Positions 9,918 to 18,897 of a DNA stretch of 64,000 nt are shown here, piece by piece (position 1 is the stretch's first letter; every line of letters starts with the position of its first letter). The notes under the pieces are model-generated. The model did no database searches and had not been told where the DNA came from. It saw only the letters and a list, made by a program, of their open reading frames with translations. The DNA is from a virus. Lineage: Duplodnaviria; Heunggongvirae; Uroviricota; Caudoviricetes. The DNA lies in IMG/VR virus record IMGVR_UViG_3300006141_000002, one strand, 5' to 3'. The position numbers and the translations under genes are program-made.

Positions 9918-10487
9918 GTGATAGAACAAATGTTTGGTATTGACGATCTGTTTTTCTTGATAGCCGGGCCTGCGCACTTTTTGGGGAAGTGTGCGGACGA
10001 GAGTGCAACGAGGTATGCGGTACAGCAAAATTCAAAGCAAAAAGGATATAATCTGACGCGGCAGAATGAACTTAAACGGATGGCATACAGCGCATCAGCA
10101 GAAGAGCGAACCGCATTTAACCATCTTGTGCGCAGAACTGTTCGGAGAGGGAAAAATAGCTGGGATGTTATTCTTGCCATCAGGCAGATATCTCTTATGG
10201 AGGGCTGGAAGTATTATGACGCTGGTGAGCAGTACAGTGATCCAGCATATGTGGAGCTCATCGGCGGAAAGTGGCCGGACTATCAGATCCCAGGAGAATT
10301 TTGCGGCAAATTTGTTGGTGATGACAAGGCTCGTGAAATGAACACGGAGACGGCCCGCAGAGAAGAATGGCGATCCAGAACTCCGCATGGTACATGTGTA
10401 GAGATTTTTCCTACGGATTATGAGACGGAAAAAGCCTATCAAGAAGCGGTCGCTCATGCCTACAGCCTAACACACAGGGGACTCTAA
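9918..10487 (+). CDS. Hypothetical protein
   Basis: ORF follows directly in operon, converges on repressor. Confidence 0.65.
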   Translation: MIEQMFGIDDLFFLIAGPAHFLGKCADESATRYAVQQNSKQKGYNLTRQNELKRMAYSASAEERTAFNHLVRRTVRRGKNSWDVILAIRQISLMEGWKYYDAGEQYSDPAYVELIGGKWPDYQIPGEFCGKFVGDDKAREMNTETARREEWRSRTPHGTCVEIFPTDYETEKAYQEAVAHAYSLTHRGL

Positions 10488-10490
10488 CCA

Positions 10491-11276
10491 TCAAAAATTG
10501 TCTGACAGCGGAATATCGAAGTCCAGTAATACTTTCCCGCAGCACCGTACTGTGTATCCGCTGTCGCTATGGACATGCACGCTCAAGTCAGAACGTTTTG
10601 GATTTGCAGAAAGCAGGTGAAGGTTTCTGTCTTCATCAAGATAGTATTGCTTGCAGTACATTTCACCGTTTACACTGAAAATTCCTACATCGCCTTCATC
10701 AAGGTCCGTCGTTTCTTTGACAAAGACCAATTCTCCGTCATGGATATAAGGCTCCATGCTGTCACCAGAAATACAGACGGCATAGTCCGCATCACCTGGA
10801 ACGCTGTCGTCCACACGAATCATCTCGAAGTCTTCTCCCTCCAGCGGAGTTCCGAAGCCAGCCGCCGGCGGGGATAGATACCTCGGGATGTATCTATTCC
10901 TGGAGATACGCTGTTCACTCCTGTTTAGCGGCAGTTTGATAATCTTCGCGTCCTGATTGATACGCTCATATTCCATTGCACATATTGTATCGACCAGATT
11001 GCGGCCATGTGCATCCAGCGCTCTGTATTTTTTCGACAGGGCGCTGATTGCTATATCTAAAGCAGATTCTGTGGTGGCGAGAGGTCGGCCAAGAAGTTCG
11101 TCTGTACTCGTGCCAAGTATATTTGCAAGCTGGATCAGGGTATCGAAAGACGGCTGCCTCGCGCCTCTCTCCCAGTTCCCTATTGTGACCGGAGTCACGC
11201 CAATACTTTGGCCAAGGGACTTCTGAGTCATACCTCTGCCTAACCTGATCGTTTTCAGGTTTTCGCTGAAGTCCAT
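10491..11276 (-). CDS. CI/LexA-like repressor: XRE HTH plus S24 peptidase
   Basis: LKTIRLGRGMTQKSL...IGNWERGARQPS HTH; ISGDSMEP (Ser) and YCKQY (Lys); GGAGG RBS before ATG 11276. Confidence 0.92.
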   Translation of the reverse strand: MDFSENLKTIRLGRGMTQKSLGQSIGVTPVTIGNWERGARQPSFDTLIQLANILGTSTDELLGRPLATTESALDIAISALSKKYRALDAHGRNLVDTICAMEYERINQDAKIIKLPLNRSEQRISRNRYIPRYLSPPAAGFGTPLEGEDFEMIRVDDSVPGDADYAVCISGDSMEPYIHDGELVFVKETTDLDEGDVGIFSVNGEMYCKQYYLDEDRNLHLLSANPKRSDLSVHVHSDSGYTVRCCGKVLLDFDIPLSDNF

Positions 11277-11299
11277 GAATACACCTCCGAAAAATGGTC

Positions 11300-11328
11300 T
11301 TGACATTACAAGCTGTTTGTGTTATCTT
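11300..11328 (+). promoter_or_regulatory. Rightward promoter of immunity region
   Basis: TTGACA-17 nt-TATCTT with TG extension. Confidence 0.7.
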
Positions 11329-11357
11329 TTCTTGCACAAACAAGATGTTATATCCGC

Positions 11358-11386
11358 AGACTACCACAAAACAATTTGTATGTCAA
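11358..11386 (-). promoter_or_regulatory. Leftward promoter driving the repressor
   Basis: TTGACA-17 nt-TAGTCT on the minus strand. Confidence 0.7.
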
Positions 11387-11576
11387 GTTCCTTTGTGCAA
11401 AAAGAAAGAAGCAGGCGCCATAAACGCCTACTTCTTCTCCCGCAAGAAAGGAATACACCAAAACCAAAAGCGGGCGCAGCGCAATGCTACGATCAGATCA
11501 TACCGCAAATATGACCTGACGGGTGTAGTATACCACGAGGCTCCCGCAAAATCAATCACTTTTCGGGAGGTACTCA

Positions 11577-11885
11577 ATGAAGTCAAACATGTCTCTTGGT
11601 CAGTTCCGTGCAGAGCTGGGGTCGTATAACAGCTTCCAGCTTGTATTTGATGACCCTCTTAGTCCGCTCACATTCTCCACCTTGTTCAATCATGCTGCTG
11701 TGATTCTGTCTGCCTCCCCCTATATCGCGCTGAAAAACAGTAGTGGTCATCTGTGCCTTAGCCACATCCAGGCTATCAAGAAACGCGGCAAAACAGACGG
11801 ATACCAGTCGTATATATTCGTTTGTAACGATTTTACCCTCTCAAACGACCCTATACCGGTCAAATATGTGCTGAACTGCGCCTAA
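11577..11885 (+). CDS. Hypothetical protein
   Basis: GGGAGGT RBS. Confidence 0.7.
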   Translation: MKSNMSLGQFRAELGSYNSFQLVFDDPLSPLTFSTLFNHAAVILSASPYIALKNSSGHLCLSHIQAIKKRGKTDGYQSYIFVCNDFTLSNDPIPVKYVLNCA

Positions 11886-11907
11886 AAAATTTCTTCATAA
11901 AAAAGTG

Positions 11908-11936
11908 TTGACAAACGCTCCCGCTTGTGGTATAAT
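11908..11936 (+). promoter_or_regulatory. Perfect consensus SigA promoter for the mazF/MrpR-like operon
   Basis: TTGACA-17 nt-TATAAT, TG extension, A/T-rich upstream tract. Confidence 0.85.
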
Positions 11937-11968
11937 TGGCTCATAAAATCAAAGAAAGGAATTGAATT

Positions 11969-12409
11969 ATGAGCGAGACTCGTCAAGCAGAGCGTGTTTC
12001 CCCTCTGATCGGGGAAGTCTACTATATGAAATTCGAAGGTAGCGGGAATGAACAGAACGGGTGGAGACCTGGCGTGGTATTCCAAAACAATGTCGGCAAC
12101 GCGCATAGCCCTAACGTGATTGCGCTTCCTATGACCAAGGTACTCAAGAAAACTGGACAGCCTACCCATGTCCTCGTGACGGCGGAGGATACCGGCATTC
12201 CGAAGGATAGCATGGTATTATGTGAGAACCCTGAAAAGATGTCAAAGAAACGGATCGGCGGGTTTATCACCAAACTATCCGACGAGTATATGAAGCAGAT
12301 TGCAAAGGCAAGCCTGATTGCAACGGCCGCAGTCTCCTTCTTGGACGAAGCTGATTTGCTGGATGTCTGGCGGAAATCTGTCAGACTGAACAGAGTGAGC
12401 GTGGCATAG
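11969..12409 (+). CDS. mazF: PemK/MazF-family endoribonuclease
   Basis: GEVYY...GNEQNGWRPGVVFQNNVGN...VIALPMT...THV...LCE motifs. Confidence 0.88.
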   Translation: MSETRQAERVSPLIGEVYYMKFEGSGNEQNGWRPGVVFQNNVGNAHSPNVIALPMTKVLKKTGQPTHVLVTAEDTGIPKDSMVLCENPEKMSKKRIGGFITKLSDEYMKQIAKASLIATAAVSFLDEADLLDVWRKSVRLNRVSVA

Positions 12410-12418
12410 GAGGTCGTC

Positions 12419-13333
12419 ATGTATAACGAAGATCGTAAAACAGCGTTCATAGAGGAGACAAGGAGTTCCTCTGATTTCGGGAAGTCTGTATTCCGGACAA
12501 CGGAGCCATATGAACAGAAGACAGGTCAAGATCTGTGTGAGCTTCCAACAGAGGTTCTGCAGGAAATTGCGAATAGTCACTTCGGATCAAGGACAAGAAC
12601 AATGGATTCAACGATTGCCTTTCTGCGATCCTATGTGACATGGTGCAAGGAGAAGGGATATCCGGCCTGTGATGGCATCTATTCCGTTCAGACACAAATG
12701 GACGAGAAAATGAAGCGCTACATGGTTGCATCGCCAAAACACTTGCAGGTTGTGCTCGACAAGGTGTTCTCACCAGTGGAAGAGGAAACAGTAGACTGTA
12801 TTTACCGCTGCTACCTGTGGATGGCATTTGCTGGGCTTGAAGAACCTGAAACGATAGAGGTGAAGGTTAACGAAGTGGACTTCGGAGCTATGCTGATTGA
12901 GCATGGCGGGAAATCGTTCGAGCTGTATCGTGAGGCGATACCTGCGTTTCGAATGGCATGTGAGGCGACGGCGTTCAAGTACCAGCACCCAAGGTATACG
13001 CAGACAAGAAGCCGATTCCCTGGCGAGTACCTGATGCGGGGCATTCGGTCAGAGCAGGTAAAGTCAACGACCGTACGGAGCATTATACAAAAGGCGTTCA
13101 AGGCCAACGAGGTTGAATTGACGTACAGTAAGATCAGAATGTCTGGTGTCTTTTACAGGGCATACGAAGCGGAACGTATGGGTGAAGAGGTAAACTTTGA
13201 TGGCCTGATCGCAGAGCACATTATCAAGATGGGCAGCACGTATCACAGGAACTACACCAGGGGCAAAGTTGCGAACCTGCTCAAAAGAGACTTCTTCGAT
13301 GACTATGCTTGCTGGAAAGCCGCGTTCACTTAA
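12419..13333 (+). CDS. MrpR/YopR-like repressor (tyrosine-recombinase-like fold, no obvious catalytic HxxR motif)
   Basis: MYNEDRK start, YLWMAFAGL, and LTYSKIRMSGVFYRAY, which resembles LTPNTIVRSGHLYRAY recalled from SPbeta YopR; similar length. Confidence 0.65.
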   Translation: MYNEDRKTAFIEETRSSSDFGKSVFRTTEPYEQKTGQDLCELPTEVLQEIANSHFGSRTRTMDSTIAFLRSYVTWCKEKGYPACDGIYSVQTQMDEKMKRYMVASPKHLQVVLDKVFSPVEEETVDCIYRCYLWMAFAGLEEPETIEVKVNEVDFGAMLIEHGGKSFELYREAIPAFRMACEATAFKYQHPRYTQTRSRFPGEYLMRGIRSEQVKSTTVRSIIQKAFKANEVELTYSKIRMSGVFYRAYEAERMGEEVNFDGLIAEHIIKMGSTYHRNYTRGKVANLLKRDFFDDYACWKAAFT

Positions 13334-13339
13334 CAAAAT

Positions 13340-13380
13340 AAAGCAAGGAAAAGGAGCTGCTGCTCCTTTTCTTTTGCTTT
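13340..13380. terminator. Bidirectional intrinsic terminator
   Basis: AAAGCAAGGAAAAGGAGC-TGCT-GCTCCTTTTCTTTTGCTTT. Confidence 0.8.
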
Positions 13381-13407
13381 TACAATACTTTTATATGAGG
13401 CGATAAG

Positions 13408-13602
13408 ATGGGACTTGTCTACCCAAAGGGAGAGATTGTATGGGTCGGGCACTATGACAAGGACAGCAATCTCAGATATATCACAACCTCCAAGCCAGCG
13501 CGAGACTACTACTATTTATATGAATTGAAGGATGGGAAGTTTGTCAAACTCGGGAAGGATCGCAATCCTCGCGCCCTTGAGGAGAAATACATACATCTTT
13601 AA
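13408..13602 (+). CDS. Small hypothetical protein
   Basis: GAGG RBS, 64 aa. Confidence 0.6.
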   Translation: MGLVYPKGEIVWVGHYDKDSNLRYITTSKPARDYYYLYELKDGKFVKLGKDRNPRALEEKYIHL

Positions 13603-13760
13603 TCGGGTTACACAGCGATGCTGTTGACCGGTATACCACATCAGTTTTCTGGCGAACTTTGATTTAGGGTATGCCTATAAATGCCTTGGAATAGGGACTT
13701 TCGCCTATCTATGCAGAGTTCCTATATATCCATGGGATAAGAACGAAAGGAGTTGGTTTT

Positions 13761-14321
13761 ATGCCAGAAAAAGAGCGATTCCTGGAACTTTGCGATAGTA
13801 TCCATCGTGACGGCATTCCAGATCTGATGGACTGGTTGGAGAAGAGTGACTTCTACTCCGCTCCAGCAAGCACAAGGTTCCACGGCAATCACCCCGGAGG
13901 ATTACTCCAGCACTCGTTGAATGTCTATGACGAGCTGAGGCGAATCCTGCACACCTACCCTGAGATTGAGGCAAGTGACGAGACTGTGGCCGTCGTCTCT
14001 CTGTTCCACGATCTCTGTAAGGTGAATTTCTATGCCAGCGAGAAACGGAACCGAAAGAACGAAGATGGGCGATGGGAGAGCTATGACGCGTACACCATCA
14101 AAGAAAAGTTCTGCTTCGGTGGTCATGGCAGCAAATCGGTGTTCATTGTCCAGAATTTCATAAAGCTCACACCGGAAGAGGCCGCTGCCATCAACTGCCA
14201 CATGGGTTCCTGGGACGGGAACAAGGACGTTGGAAACGCCTATGAACAGTTTAAGCTGGCGTGGGCACTCCATGTAGCGGACGAAGCTGCTACATACATA
14301 CTCGAAAGCAAACAAGATTAA
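13761..14321 (+). CDS. HD-domain hydrolase
   Basis: APASTRFHGNHPGGLLQHS, LFHDLCK, CHMG and LHVAD. Confidence 0.88.
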   Translation: MPEKERFLELCDSIHRDGIPDLMDWLEKSDFYSAPASTRFHGNHPGGLLQHSLNVYDELRRILHTYPEIEASDETVAVVSLFHDLCKVNFYASEKRNRKNEDGRWESYDAYTIKEKFCFGGHGSKSVFIVQNFIKLTPEEAAAINCHMGSWDGNKDVGNAYEQFKLAWALHVADEAATYILESKQD

Positions 14322-14334
14322 GGAGGAAGTGTTA

Positions 14335-14622
14335 ATGCCTTTCGGCAGAACAAAACCCGCAGCGCCGGTTTCAGCACCGGATATTCTGGCGCAAAAGAAG
14401 AACCAACTCGATCTCTACAACGCTAGGTTCGACCACGCTGTCGAGCTCTTTAACGATGCGATTGACAGTCTTGGGATGACCAGCCATGACATCGCTGAGA
14501 CGATGCAGGAGATCAGCGAATACGAGAAGGAATTGGAGACCACAAAAGCCGGGCTCTCCGAGGCGAGGGACAAAACAGAGCGGGTCATCGCAAACTTCAA
14601 GTCCCTGCTTTCCATCGACTGA
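14335..14622 (+). CDS. Coiled-coil hypothetical protein
   Basis: AGGAGG RBS; heptad pattern. Confidence 0.7.
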   Translation: MPFGRTKPAAPVSAPDILAQKKNQLDLYNARFDHAVELFNDAIDSLGMTSHDIAETMQEISEYEKELETTKAGLSEARDKTERVIANFKSLLSID

Positions 14623-14642
14623 CCATCAGAGAGGAGTATCCT

Positions 14643-15362
14643 ATGGCAGAAGAACTGAATCTTCAGCAGAAGCTTGCCAAGATCCGTAAGATGACCGAGG
14701 TTATCCAGAAGAACAAGAAGGGGTTCAATTACAGGTACACATCTATTGACGAGATTCTGGCGCGTGTGACGGCTGGCATGAACAAATACAATGTGTCCCT
14801 GTACCCAAATGTAGATCCGCAGTCCGAGGTTATCACACCATACTCATACGGGAAGACAAAATTCACCAAGGACGGGCAGCAGTACGAGGAGCAGAATAAC
14901 GAGATCATCGCACAGGCCCGCGTCATATATACCTGGGTCAACGATGATAACCCTGATGAGACGCTTCAAATCCCTTGGTTTGTTGTTGGCAGCCAACAAG
15001 ACCCAGCGCAGGCGTTCGGCAGCGGACTGACATACGGTCTGCGCCAATTCCTGATCCAGTTTTTCCAGATTGCTACGCTGGATGGCGAAGATCCGGATGA
15101 CTGGCGCAGCAAACAGCGGTTCGCCGAAGGCGAGGAAGACCGCACAATCGCCGGAAAAATTGTGGAGCAAATCCACGCTTTGGTGACTACATATCTGAGA
15201 GAGAACCCTGACGAAAAGCAGAAGGTTATCGCTCTCACAAAAAAATATGTTCGTGAAAACGGGAAGCCGAGCGCGAACTATTACGCTATCGAAACCTCAG
15301 CCCAAGCGTCTGAACTTCTGGAGGCGCTGAAGGCTGAGTTTTCTAATACAAAGAAGGAGTGA
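14643..15362 (+). CDS. ERF-family single-strand annealing protein
   Basis: NYRYTSIDEIL and QAFGSGLTYGLRQFL...EDPD. Confidence 0.85.
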   Translation: MAEELNLQQKLAKIRKMTEVIQKNKKGFNYRYTSIDEILARVTAGMNKYNVSLYPNVDPQSEVITPYSYGKTKFTKDGQQYEEQNNEIIAQARVIYTWVNDDNPDETLQIPWFVVGSQQDPAQAFGSGLTYGLRQFLIQFFQIATLDGEDPDDWRSKQRFAEGEEDRTIAGKIVEQIHALVTTYLRENPDEKQKVIALTKKYVRENGKPSANYYAIETSAQASELLEALKAEFSNTKKE

Positions 15363-15368
15363 TTTAGT

Positions 15369-15761
15369 ATGGGATTTCGGCAAGGTGGTTTCTGCTCCGT
15401 GTGGAGCACAGAGCCAAGCAAGTCCGGCAAGACAACGAGGGTTCGTCTATCGTCCAGCCGGAAGAATCAGTCAAGCGGGGAGTACGAGCAGGATTTCTCT
15501 GGATTCTGTACCTTCATCGGGAAGGCACACGATATGGCGCAGAGCCTGCAGCCGAAGGATCGCATCAAGATTCTGGAATGCGATGTCGGTACTACATACG
15601 ACAAGGAGAAGCAGAAGGAGTACGTCAACTATAAGGTGTTCGACTTTGAGATGGCTGACGGCAGTAAATCCGGCGATAGCGGCAACAAGGCCAGCGGCAG
15701 GAAGAAATCTGCATTCGATGTTGACGGTGGCGAAGCGGACGACAGCGATCTCCCCTTCTGA
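15369..15761 (+). CDS. ssb: Single-stranded DNA-binding protein
   Basis: OB-fold-like core, acidic DDSDLPF tail, next to ERF. Confidence 0.8.
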   Translation: MGFRQGGFCSVWSTEPSKSGKTTRVRLSSSRKNQSSGEYEQDFSGFCTFIGKAHDMAQSLQPKDRIKILECDVGTTYDKEKQKEYVNYKVFDFEMADGSKSGDSGNKASGRKKSAFDVDGGEADDSDLPF

Positions 15762-15779
15762 TCAGGTCGGTGAGACTAA

Positions 15780-16553
15780 GTGAATTACTCGAATATCATT
15801 TCGGATTTCACATGGTCTTACTCTCGGATCGGTCAGTTTGAGATGTGTCCTTATGGGTTTCTGCTGAACTATATCAAAAGAGCAAGTAAGAAACCCATGT
15901 TCTTCTCGGACTATGGGAGTTTCATGCACAAGCTGATTGAACAATATTTGCGTGGTTTTTTGGAGAAAGACGAATTGGCGGCCACATATCTGGCTGGGTT
16001 CAGGAAAAACGTCAGAGGGAAGGCGCCAAACGGAAAAATCTTCAAGAGTTATTTTGAGCAAGGGTATGAGTACCTGAGCCACATTGATTTCCCATATCTG
16101 TCTCCAGTCGGGATTGAGCAAAAGGTTAATTTCTTCATTGGGGACAAACCATTTACAGGTATCATTGACTGCGCGGCTATGGACGATGGGGAACTTGTTA
16201 TCATTGACAACAAGTCAAGAGCGTTGAAGCCGCGATCAGGCAGAGGTAAGCCAACAGTTTCTGACCAAGAGCTTGACTCCTATCTGAGGCAGCTCTACCT
16301 GTATAGCGTTCCGATGGAACAGCTTTATCATACATACCCAGTCAGGCTGGAGTTCAACTGTTTCCGAACGGGGCAGTTGATCTCCGAGCCTTTCCGGGAG
16401 CAAGAATTTGAAAAGACAAAAGAATGGGCACTCAAATCCATTGATACGATCACGAGAAATGAAGACTGGTCGCCAAAGATAGACTACTGGAAGTGTAGAT
16501 ACATTTGCGACCTGAGTGATGATTGCTGTTACTTCCAGATGAACAGGAGGTGA
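15780..16553 (+). CDS. PD-(D/E)XK nuclease, Cas4/RecB-like
   Basis: SYSRI..F..CP, GIID, IIDNKS, QLYLY and a C-terminal Cys cluster. Confidence 0.88.
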   Translation: MNYSNIISDFTWSYSRIGQFEMCPYGFLLNYIKRASKKPMFFSDYGSFMHKLIEQYLRGFLEKDELAATYLAGFRKNVRGKAPNGKIFKSYFEQGYEYLSHIDFPYLSPVGIEQKVNFFIGDKPFTGIIDCAAMDDGELVIIDNKSRALKPRSGRGKPTVSDQELDSYLRQLYLYSVPMEQLYHTYPVRLEFNCFRTGQLISEPFREQEFEKTKEWALKSIDTITRNEDWSPKIDYWKCRYICDLSDDCCYFQMNRR

Positions 16554-16558
16554 TTGCA

Positions 16559-17890
16559 TTGGACATCAATGAGATTTGCGATATCAGCAGTGAGGCCGGC
16601 GTAGTGGCATCTCTGGTTTTCAATCCAGACTACATCTATCTTGTAGAACAGCTTACGGCGCAGCACTTCACAAACCAACAGAACTCCTACATCTTCTACG
16701 CGATTAAGAAGCTGGCGGAGCGAAACGTCAAGACTATCGATGCCTACAACATTATGAGTATCCTGCGTTCGGATCAAAAGATGAAAGGTAAGGCAGATAG
16801 AGTCCTGACAGAGCGCGGCGTTGAGGAGTTCATAGGCAATGCCTCCTCGATTGCGAGAAACACACCAGAGGGATACAAACTCGTTGCAGATGCCGTGCTC
16901 AGTTCTGCGTTCCGGCGTGCAACCTATCAGAAGCTATGCGAATGTCAGAGTATCTGTCAGAACCAGTCAGAAACAGAAATCGAACAGAAAATATATGCAA
17001 CGCTTGATGATGTGATGATACAGTTTTCAACGACAAAAGAGGTTCCGCAATATAAAGATGTCGTTGACGAACTATGGGAGCAGATATGTCAGCGGCAGAG
17101 AAGCGGTGTGTCTGGTATTCCGTTCAAGTTCCCCACCCTGAACCAGTACGTCACGATTGAACCTGGCGAGCTGGTTATCTTCGCTGCAGAGGCCAAGCAG
17201 GGCAAGAGCATGATGCTCCTAAACTGTGCAGTAGATTTGCTCAGACGCGGTAAGCGAGTGATGTATATTGACAGTGAGCTGAACTCACGGCTCTTTACTT
17301 GCCGGCTGATGGCACACTTAGCAAAGATCGAGTTCAACAGGGTTCGCAGCGGCAACTACTCGCCGGAGGAGGCAGCACGTATTGCTACCTGCAAAGAGTG
17401 GATGAAGTCAAAAAGTTTCACCCATCTCTATATGCCGATGTTCGATGCACAGAGCATCTTTACAACCGTTAAGAAGGTTAATCACACACAGGGCATTGAC
17501 GTTCTAATTGTGGATTACTTCAAAGGGAAAGGCGAAGGCGATGCGTTTGACAGCTACCAAGAACTCGGAAGATTCGTCGATATGGTCAAGAACCAAATCT
17601 GCGGTGATATGAACATCGCTGGTATCGGTGCAGCTCAAGCGACATCGACCGGTAAGGTAGCGGATAGCGCGAAGATCGGGCGCAATGCTTCTACGATTGC
17701 AGTCATACAGGACAAGCTGCCGGAAGAAATTGAGACTGACGGCCCTGAGTGCGGCAATAAGAAACTCAGAGTAGTTCTGAATCGTAACGGCCCACAAATG
17801 GCGCCAGACGAGTACATAGACATGGCTTTCTGCGGCAATCTTATTTCCTATGAGGAAGCGCGGCAACACGTTGTGCAAATGCCGTATTGA
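16559..17890 (+). CDS. dnaB: DnaB-like replicative helicase
   Basis: TTG start with AGGAGGTG RBS; Walker A AEAKQGKS, IVDY, AQ and LNRNGP. Confidence 0.9.
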   Translation: MDINEICDISSEAGVVASLVFNPDYIYLVEQLTAQHFTNQQNSYIFYAIKKLAERNVKTIDAYNIMSILRSDQKMKGKADRVLTERGVEEFIGNASSIARNTPEGYKLVADAVLSSAFRRATYQKLCECQSICQNQSETEIEQKIYATLDDVMIQFSTTKEVPQYKDVVDELWEQICQRQRSGVSGIPFKFPTLNQYVTIEPGELVIFAAEAKQGKSMMLLNCAVDLLRRGKRVMYIDSELNSRLFTCRLMAHLAKIEFNRVRSGNYSPEEAARIATCKEWMKSKSFTHLYMPMFDAQSIFTTVKKVNHTQGIDVLIVDYFKGKGEGDAFDSYQELGRFVDMVKNQICGDMNIAGIGAAQATSTGKVADSAKIGRNASTIAVIQDKLPEEIETDGPECGNKKLRVVLNRNGPQMAPDEYIDMAFCGNLISYEEARQHVVQMPY

Positions 17891-17907
17891 TGAATGGAGG
17901 TGATGGC

Positions 17908-18897
17908 GTGGAAGTATCTGAAATCATCGAAAGCGTAGATATTCTGGAATACATATCTCAGTTTTGTGATCCGCAGGAGAAAGAAGACGGAGAGTATTGG
18001 TGCCTCAGCCCATTGAAAGATGAAAACACGCCGTCATTTTCCATCAATCAGGAGATGCAGAGGTTCTACGACTTCTCATCTGGTAAAGGCGGGAATGTCC
18101 TGGACTTTATCCGCGCATACAACAACTGCGATTTTTTGGAAGGTCTGCGGATACTGAAGGATTACGCTGGAATTTCCGAAAGCGGCACATCGACAGCCCC
18201 GCAGCGACTCTTAGCGACATCTATTGCAAAGCGGTTCCAGAGCAAACCGCAAAAAAAGAAGGCGTCAAAGACCTCCATACTTCCCAAGGACTATATGGAC
18301 CGTTATGAGTGGAATGTAAAGAAACTTGCGGTCTGGGAGCGAGAAGGTATCACGATGGAATCCATGGAGAGATTTCAGGTGCGATACGACCCGTTCTCAG
18401 ACCGTCTCGTTTATCCCATCAAAGACGCAAGCGGTAATATTTTCAGTGTCTGCGGCAGGACGCTCGACCCTCATTTCAAAGAGAAGAATCTTAGAAAGTA
18501 TACCTATTTCCAGCCTATTGGAATTTTAGACACCATTTATGGTCTGTCAGATAACAGCGAGGAAATTCGCAAATGCGGAGAGATTATTCTGTTCGAGGGC
18601 GCAAAATCAGTCATAATGGCTGATGGTTGGGGAATCAAAAATACTGGGGCGATTTTAACATCGCACCTCAACCCATATCAGTTCAAGATTCTGATCCAAC
18701 TTTGCGTCAAGGTCACATTTGCGCTGGACGCAGAGATTGATATCCGAGAAGATACAAACATCATGAAGCTTAGGCAGTACACACAGGTGTATTGGATCAG
18801 AAACAGAGACAATGCGCTTGACCCAAAGGATAGCCCAACAGACAAGGGGGAAGACGTGTTCCGGTCGCTTTACCAAGAAAGGGGGCGGTTGCGATGA
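17908..18897 (+). CDS. dnaG: DnaG-type primase
   Basis: ZBD-like SPLKDENTPSF...GKGG; TOPRIM FEG and LDAE. Confidence 0.88.
   Translation: MEVSEIIESVDILEYISQFCDPQEKEDGEYWCLSPLKDENTPSFSINQEMQRFYDFSSGKGGNVLDFIRAYNNCDFLEGLRILKDYAGISESGTSTAPQRLLATSIAKRFQSKPQKKKASKTSILPKDYMDRYEWNVKKLAVWEREGITMESMERFQVRYDPFSDRLVYPIKDASGNIFSVCGRTLDPHFKEKNLRKYTYFQPIGILDTIYGLSDNSEEIRKCGEIILFEGAKSVIMADGWGIKNTGAILTSHLNPYQFKILIQLCVKVTFALDAEIDIREDTNIMKLRQYTQVYWIRNRDNALDPKDSPTDKGEDVFRSLYQERGRLR

Follow-up and report, generated by a model that had tools for sequence, protein, structure and literature searches.

Why should a temperate phage carry a gene for a MazF-type endoribonuclease at the head of what looks like its repressor operon, and what would such an RNase do there? 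The locus that raises this question lies in a stretch of 64,000 nucleotides (the window) from the Caudoviricetes record IMGVR_UViG_3300006141_000002; the window is part of a complete virus record of 138,873 bp, about the size of SPbeta. It comprises mazF (11969-12409, plus strand), encoding a PemK/MazF endoribonuclease of 146 aa, and an open reading frame (ORF) for a recombinase-fold repressor homolog of 304 aa (12419-13333, plus strand) that resembles MrpR (YopR) of SPbeta and SroF of phi3T. Our analysis leans, by a small measure, toward the view that the two genes form the lysogeny operon of a temperate gut-Clostridia phage, large at 139 kb, and that this operon would combine a transcriptional with a post-transcriptional lock.

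An earlier note on this DNA had described mazF and the 304-aa ORF as lying 9 nt apart with one promoter and one terminator, and all of these elements were found. Both genes are read from one strand and share a reading frame, and the AGGAGG ribosome-binding site of the mrpR-like gene (12408-13) overlaps the TAG stop codon of mazF (12407-09). Upstream lies a sigma-70/SigA-type promoter (11908-11936, plus strand; TTGACA-17-TATAAT), which agrees with the consensus at 12/12 positions and has an extended -10 (TG); the interval between it and mazF is too short for any ORF. The operon ends in an intrinsic terminator (13345-13374, plus strand) with a 13-bp stem, a 4-nt loop and a T-rich tail. A near-consensus promoter was also present upstream of mazF in nearly all relatives, despite differing spacer sequences, and in relatives lacking mazF (L023, L026 and L032) a like promoter lies directly 5' of the repressor gene. 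Retention of the promoter in spite of spacer divergence, and its abutting the repressor gene where mazF is missing, reflect selection rather than chance. Judged by these loci, the stable unit is the promoter, an optional mazF and the repressor gene.

A 15-nt A/T-rich element, TTTCTTCATAAAAAA (11890-11904, plus strand), is located directly upstream of the -35 of the operon promoter and occurs in exactly two copies in the 139-kb genome, the second copy being inverted and at an equal distance from its own -35. The second copy lies beyond the window (L128:2900-2960, equal to G000:C1 ~90,900-90,960 or ~86,831 on the window scale), at a promoter with a 12/12 consensus match and a -10 region, TGTGGTATAAT, identical to that of the mazF promoter, and this promoter drives a 287-aa gene of the Phage_integrase family (E 2e-15). 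The presence of both sequences at an integrase promoter and at the mazF promoter supports a lysogeny role of the operon, and TTTCTTCATAAAAAA may be a common control site of lysogeny genes.

The resemblance of the second ORF to MrpR, which the earlier note had based on motifs, is real homology as judged by both sequence profiles and the predicted fold. Pfam domain PF22822 (MrpR_N_CB) was matched at residues 1-76 with an E-value of 2.2e-12 (47.9 bits against a cut-off of 27), and it was detected in all 81 homolog clusters except two truncated forms. A profile of 36 family members matched YopR/MrpR in the PDB over residues 1-256 (E 1.4e-6) and phi3T SroF with E 1e-3. When the AlphaFold (AF2) model (predicted local distance difference test score, pLDDT, 90.5) was searched with Foldseek, ranks 1-7 were occupied by MrpR, YopR and SroF (8a0a, 8bj6, 8bpz, 9rd5 and 9rgl; E 1.4e-8 to 3.9e-5), and the best recombinase, Cre (E 8.4e-5), as well as XerA and the integrases, ranked below them. 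Identity in the MrpR/YopR/SroF matches was 14-16% and TM-scores were 0.42-0.58; these low scores probably reflect a different pose of the two domains in the model.

The recombinase active site appears to be degenerate. E141, within the segment AGLEEPE, occupies the place of the box I Arg of integrases, where MrpR has SGLAHSE, and this position is variable within the repressor family; the box II place (SKIRMSG) has no His. The Phage_integrase domain (PF00589) was undetected in the repressor at E-values up to 1, against 2e-15 for the true integrase of the same phage. Tyr296 near the C-terminus is invariant. By homology, the mrpR-like protein would silence lytic promoters.

The mazF product matched PF02452 (PemK_toxin) with E 9e-21, above the cut-off, and its closest solved protein is EndoA/MazF of Bacillus subtilis (4mdx, E 8e-17). 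Its predicted catalytic residues, R33 (in WRP) and T56 (in LP.T), fall opposite the catalytic R25 and T48 of the B. subtilis protein, and both are invariant in an alignment of 20 homologs (A3). The protein also possesses a C-terminal extension of ~22 aa (residues 125-146; 12341-12406), in which L125, W134 and N141 are invariant in 20 homologs. The motif of this extension, F/Y-L/I-D-x3-L-x2-V/I-W-x-K-A-x2-L/M-N, runs throughout the phage MazF subfamily and is absent from B. subtilis MazF. The extension might be an in-cis inhibitor or a docking helix.

U^ACAUA has been reported as the strict six-base site of B. subtilis MazF, conserved in the MazFs of Listeria and S. aureus, and the B. subtilis enzyme has been described as a non-lethal regulator (bioRxiv 10.64898/2026.08.06.743204). 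For phi3T, most phage mRNAs are degraded by MazF, the sroF operon being excepted (bioRxiv 10.1101/2025.11.27.690993). The hexamer content of the phage genes was analysed under a null model in which the protein was kept and synonymous codons were resampled with category-specific usage, and all 4,096 hexamers were ranked. In the genes just downstream of the operon, TACATA ranked first of the 4,096 for over-representation (124 copies against 45 expected, in 72 loci). It again ranked first among 24 representatives with less than 55% repressor identity (38 against 14.8 expected), where copies fell in all three frames and 20 of 23 loci had the hexamer. One-base variants were unenriched (ratios 0.49-1.22) and the reverse complement was mildly enriched (1.55). 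In the repressor gene the hexamer is scarce, with two copies against 11 expected (Poisson P 4e-11 if the ratio of the early genes is applied), and the upstream neighbour of mazF, here called up102, holds 29 against 10 expected (rank 13). Relatives without mazF had a weaker enrichment (1.43 vs 2.67, P ~0.03, small sample). Depletion of the pentamer UACAU in the repressor gene was considered and rejected, as the raw sense/antisense counts of 52 vs 167 became 52 vs 56 under the synonymous-codon null; the signal resides in the hexamer alone.

The genome under study holds 51 sense-strand UACAUA sites against 17.4 expected. Eight of them, against ~1.4 expected, lie in the seven first early genes after the terminator (13408-18897, plus strand), at 13588, 14291, 14295, 15188, 15593, 16331, 17813 and 17950. 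These genes are a 64-aa ORF, an HD phosphohydrolase, an ERF recombinase, a 130-aa ORF, a PD-(D/E)XK-like gene, a DnaB-like gene and a 336-aa ORF, of which HD and ERF were labelled by Pfam and PD-(D/E)XK and DnaB by reading the translations. The loading of UACAUA in early genes and its sparing in the repressor gene fit a phage-owned MazF arm of the switch.

The distribution of the genes was surveyed from both sides, with a repressor-seeded search (46 loci, 44 of them with upstream DNA) and a MazF-seeded search (80 viral loci). Related loci came from gut and rumen metagenomes and from metagenome-assembled genomes (MAGs) labelled Oscillospiraceae, Congzhengia, Ruminococcus and Clostridia, and one repressor homolog was found in an Intestinimonas genome. 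A prophage of Intestinimonas butyriciproducens encodes a repressor that is 50% identical. No match to the repressor was obtained by tblastn among 50,697 GenBank phages, and the family is known only from metagenomes, MAGs and the single Intestinimonas genome. The adjacency of mazF and the mrpR-like gene, proposed for survey by the earlier note, is conserved: of the 44 repressor-seeded loci, 37 have mazF immediately upstream, even where the repressor is only 28-40% identical, and an MrpR-like ORF follows MazF in 80/80 of the MazF-seeded loci. In two of the latter (L087:3935-4253 and L125:3905-4461) the MrpR-like ORF begins 320-550 nt past mazF, not 9-34 nt, and an extra small gene may be inserted between them.

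The conserved unit, however, has three genes rather than the two first described. The gene up102 is directly upstream in 41 of the 44 repressor-seeded loci, including those without mazF (jackhmmer), and in 76 of the 80 MazF-seeded loci (hmmsearch); it is thus tied to the repressor more tightly than mazF, which is dispensable. When 75 distinct repressors were placed on a tree, the three lineages without mazF fell at separate points within mazF-bearing clades, which implies at least two to three losses of the gene. MazF proteins have a median pairwise identity of 61%, compared with 40% for the repressors and 21% for up102, and by this measure MazF is under the strongest constraint among the three genes.

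The up102 gene (11577-11885, plus strand) encodes a small beta-rich protein of 102 aa, whose AF2 model (pLDDT 93) is a pleckstrin homology (PH)-like beta barrel with one helix and has YojF as its best solved match (1njh, Z 8.0). Divergent from it, on the minus strand (10491-11306), is the gene of a repressor with a helix-turn-helix (HTH) and a Peptidase_S24 domain, of the autocleavable CI/LexA-like kind (HTH_3 E 5e-16, Peptidase_S24 E 3e-18, PHROG 4 transcriptional repressor E 1.5e-39). The control region between the two (11300-11404) contains the inverted repeats I12 and I13, three motif copies of the TTGCACAAA / TTTGTGCAA type (11308-11404) and a rightward promoter-like site (11300-11328), and the motif copies are probably the operators of the S24 repressor. 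About half of the representative loci have an S24 homolog transcribed away from up102 on its upstream side and about half lack one, unlike the MrpR-like gene, which is always present. An exact LexA box (GAAC-N4-GTTC) was found upstream of up102 in four of 70 relatives, against ~0.2 expected, and those four are without the S24 repressor.

In phi3T and SPbeta, induction is triggered by a small LexA-controlled antirepressor, Sar, which co-evolves with SroF (bioRxiv 10.1101/2025.11.27.690993). The divergence of up102 tracks that of the repressor (Spearman 0.75), and because of this and of its SOS-type control element up102 can be seen as a counterpart of Sar; it is reasonable to regard it as the best candidate for the factor, antirepressor or partner, that inactivates the repressor at induction. 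The two-layer circuit that had been suggested for this locus stands in part: a separate CI/LexA repressor does adjoin the operon, but its more probable role is the control of up102, rather than that of a second repressor layer in its own right. Also within this region, a weak promoter-like site on the minus strand (11555 to 11527) is followed on that strand by a strong terminator (11437 to 11405), and a small RNA of ~115 nt antisense to the up102 leader could be made from 11405-11555.

The mechanism that we propose from these elements is as follows. A strong host-type promoter would drive both mazF and the mrpR-like gene. The recombinase-fold protein, apparently degenerate in its catalytic site, would act as a DNA-binding repressor and silence the lytic promoters, and the intact MazF would cut the phage's own UACAUA-enriched early messages as a second, post-transcriptional lock, the repressor message being almost free of sites. 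The logic would be that of phi3T, but with the RNase encoded within the repressor operon and without an antitoxin gene; a six-base exact-match specificity would make such an antitoxin-less MazF tolerable to the host. On induction, up102, placed behind an SOS-type element (the S24 repressor here, LexA boxes in some relatives), would inactivate the repressor. The anatomy, homologies, conservation and motif statistics are observed; we infer where MazF cuts, which messages it targets, how it affects lysogeny and what up102 does. The antitoxin-less MazF in the repressor operon and the loading of early genes with its presumed cut site suggest that the phage may carry its own version of a dormancy tool that Bacillus phages borrow from the host.

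Several observations weigh against this double lock. The cut site U^ACAUA is predicted from characterised MazFs of Bacillota, and some residues of the phage MazF differ from those aligned to them in B. subtilis MazF. The mazF gene itself is neutral for TACATA (5 against 4.4 expected) and not depleted, and the complete lack of UACAUA in the S24 repressor, up102, mazF and mrpR genes of this genome is uninformative, with ~0.5 expected. The loci are related and their z-scores consequently inflated, many unrelated hexamers reaching z 6 to 9 in the full set. From its repeated loss, mazF is not essential to the switch, and an RNase made all the time may yet require an inhibitor. No repeated operator of the SPBRE kind emerged from intergenic k-mer scans of the whole genome (exact and with 1-2 mismatches), scans that could miss degenerate 24-bp sites. 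The repeats that they did yield were rejected as operators, since all of them belonged to ordinary promoters, to the arms of tRNAs or to a 21-nt repeat, itself unrelated, close to a gene for a reverse transcriptase. Homology of up102 to Sar/YopT was likewise not upheld, since Foldseek and the wide VIA search listed no match to 2DLB or to the 9RGL Sar chains, although a monomer model of a possible intertwined dimer makes this a weak test.

The question of an inhibitor also bears on the first rival explanation. Neither MazE (AbrB-type, PF04014) nor ribbon-helix-helix (RHH, PF01402) proteins were matched anywhere in the complete 138,873-bp record, although 11 of 14 control genomes yielded members of these families in the same searches. 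Type II MazEF modules have an adjacent, normally upstream, cognate antitoxin gene, and in this operon it is the promoter that abuts mazF. An antisense-RNA antitoxin transcribed from a minus-strand promoter-like site within mazF (12245 to 12217, 11/12) was considered and set aside as chance, as the synonymous positions are not kept in 33 homologs. The candidates for holding MazF in check would be the repressor, up102 or MazF's own C-terminal tail.

The operon might accordingly be read as a reversed toxin-antitoxin or addiction module, in which the MrpR-like protein or up102 neutralises MazF by binding, and the two together keep the prophage stable or kill any cell in which it is lost or derepressed, lysogeny control being secondary. 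We consider this unlikely, although it would accommodate the missing MazE/RHH gene, the tight translational coupling (a mazF-to-repressor gap of -8 to 34 nt in relatives, with the ribosome-binding site overlapping the mazF stop) and the conserved helix-like C-terminal extension of MazF, which could serve as a docking site. A precedent is MazF-mx of Myxococcus xanthus, a solitary MazF with the transcription factor MrpC as its antitoxin. That system is alike in linking a mazF without mazE to a transcription regulator, and unlike in that the regulator family is unrelated and the setting chromosomal and developmental. The MazF subfamily was never found without an MrpR-like gene (80 viral loci) and the repressor does occur without MazF, an asymmetry expected of a toxin and its neutraliser, but one that follows equally from vertical inheritance in one phage lineage. 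Moreover, the same promoter serves the MrpR-like gene where mazF is missing, the repressor evolves much faster than MazF (40% vs 61% identity), and UACAUA as the top hexamer of the early genes is left unexplained. A neutraliser may also be unneeded, B. subtilis MazF having been reported as non-lethal (bioRxiv 10.64898/2026.08.06.743204).

A little less likely again is that mazF is a defence or superinfection-exclusion cargo (a moron) on the always-on repressor promoter, where MazF would cut the transcripts of incoming phages, especially relatives, and have no part in the phage's own lysis-lysogeny decision. The operon has its own strong promoter and terminator, mazF is co-expressed with the immunity gene and some members of the family do without it, PHROGs places MazF-like genes in the class 'moron, auxiliary metabolic gene and host takeover', and the host MazEF of Bacillus limits arbitrium phages according to Cui et al. 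2022 as cited in PMC10516654. Against such a role, no PADLOC defence model matched up102, MazF or the repressor, and mazF is far more conserved and positionally fixed than typical cargo genes. Action on foreign transcripts only should also select sites away from the phage's own early genes, which are instead enriched in the cut site. Least likely of all is that the S24 CI/LexA-like protein is the real master repressor, with another DNA-related task for the MrpR-like protein and mere inherited linkage for mazF, since the classic divergent position with operator-like repeats and the lack of a repeated MrpR operator are outweighed by the patchy occurrence of S24 noted above and by promoter conservation, translational coupling and the motif contrast between repressor and early genes, which argue for functional coupling. 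These rivals are possible, but they explain the hexamer pattern less well than the double lock does.

The parallel with the SPbeta-like phages can be drawn gene by gene. MrpR (YopR, SPbeta) and SroF (phi3T_97), recombinase-fold master repressors (PDB 8A0A, 8BJ6, 8BPZ, 9RD5 and 9RGL; PMC10516654; bioRxiv 10.1101/2025.11.27.690993), have in common with the repressor described here the MrpR_N_CB domain, a two-domain fold of core-binding and catalytic-like parts and a replaced box I Arg, and their genes likewise close a short operon that lies in the lysogeny region, in phages with genomes of about 135 kb. The present operon differs in having two genes and not six and in that no repeated operator was found, and the repressor function of its second gene is predicted from homology.

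With the sro operon (yopM-R / phi3T_92-97) and arbitrium, the locus has in common the coupling of a repressor operon to MazF activity (PMC10769878; Cui et al. 2022 as cited in PMC10516654). The published MazF-lysogeny link in SPbeta-like phages, to which the earlier note referred, is correctly given: phi3T_93, from the sroF operon, frees host MazF and promotes lysogeny, by a route called an "uncharacterized mechanism" for these phages (PMC10769878). Lysogeny is favoured by MazF activity in phi3T, where the message of the repressor operon is spared; here, few cut sites lie in the repressor gene and many in the early genes. MazF and MazE are host genes in the sro system, with phi3T_93/YopN, AimX and YosL as phage modulators, whereas here MazF is phage-encoded at the head of the operon and no MazE was found. 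No AimR-like protein was detected among six ORFs of 330-400 aa scanned against Pfam, three of which had no family.

Sar/YopT (PDB 2DLB and 9RGL; bioRxiv 10.1101/2025.11.27.690993) and up102 are alike in being small, adjoining the repressor gene, diverging in step with it and being under SOS-type control. They are unlike in position and, by the up102 model, in fold, Sar being an intertwined alpha/beta dimer and up102 a PH-like barrel encoded upstream of the repressor gene, not downstream. The phage MazF, finally, has the catalytic Arg/Thr, the EQ loop and the PTHV motif of B. subtilis MazF (EndoA/NdoA; PDB 4MDX and 4ME7), and the same hexamer is prominent in the phage genes; unlike the B. subtilis protein it has an extra C-terminal ~22 aa, a longer N-terminus and no upstream mazE.

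For Bacillus phages, published work already covers this repressor family, the principle of the antirepressor and the link between MazF and lysogeny. Within the library searched, we found no paper on a phage-encoded, antitoxin-less MazF heading an MrpR-type repressor operon, on its PH-like partner gene or on the loading of early genes with cut sites. We put forward, tentatively and at a little under even confidence, that a widespread lineage of large gut-Clostridia phages carries an antitoxin-less, six-base-specific RNase in its repressor operon, with UACAUA content tuned to it (early genes and the putative antirepressor gene loaded, the repressor spared), as a self-contained double lock independent of host MazEF and of arbitrium. 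This phage family would offer a simpler natural version of the MazF-lysogeny system, in which the RNase lies in the repressor operon with no antitoxin and apparently no arbitrium, and the model predicts clearly which messages are cut. If the proposal holds, a toxin-family RNase would serve as a dedicated regulator inside a virus, phages would shape the cut-site content of their own genes, and MrpR/SroF repression would extend from Bacillus to abundant gut Clostridia phages, with a bearing on the stability and induction of gut prophages.

Some minor features of the region and of the wider genome may be added. The 64-aa ORF (13408-13602), for which no Pfam or PHROG family was found, directly follows the operon here and in the closest relatives, and lies ~4 kb upstream of the repressor gene in distant relatives. 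A search of 10400-13900 against Rfam gave nothing meaningful. Only five sigma-70 promoter-like sites (11/12 or 12/12, or with an extended -10) stand before genes in the 139 kb, and most phage transcription probably uses other signals. Beyond the window, at G000:C1 ~108,970-115,630, four copies of the 21-nt element CTCTGTATTGTAAATCAGAGT, the fourth with two changes, are arranged around a second gene for a reverse transcriptase (379 aa; RVT_1, E 3e-17), within the tRNA-rich part of the genome.

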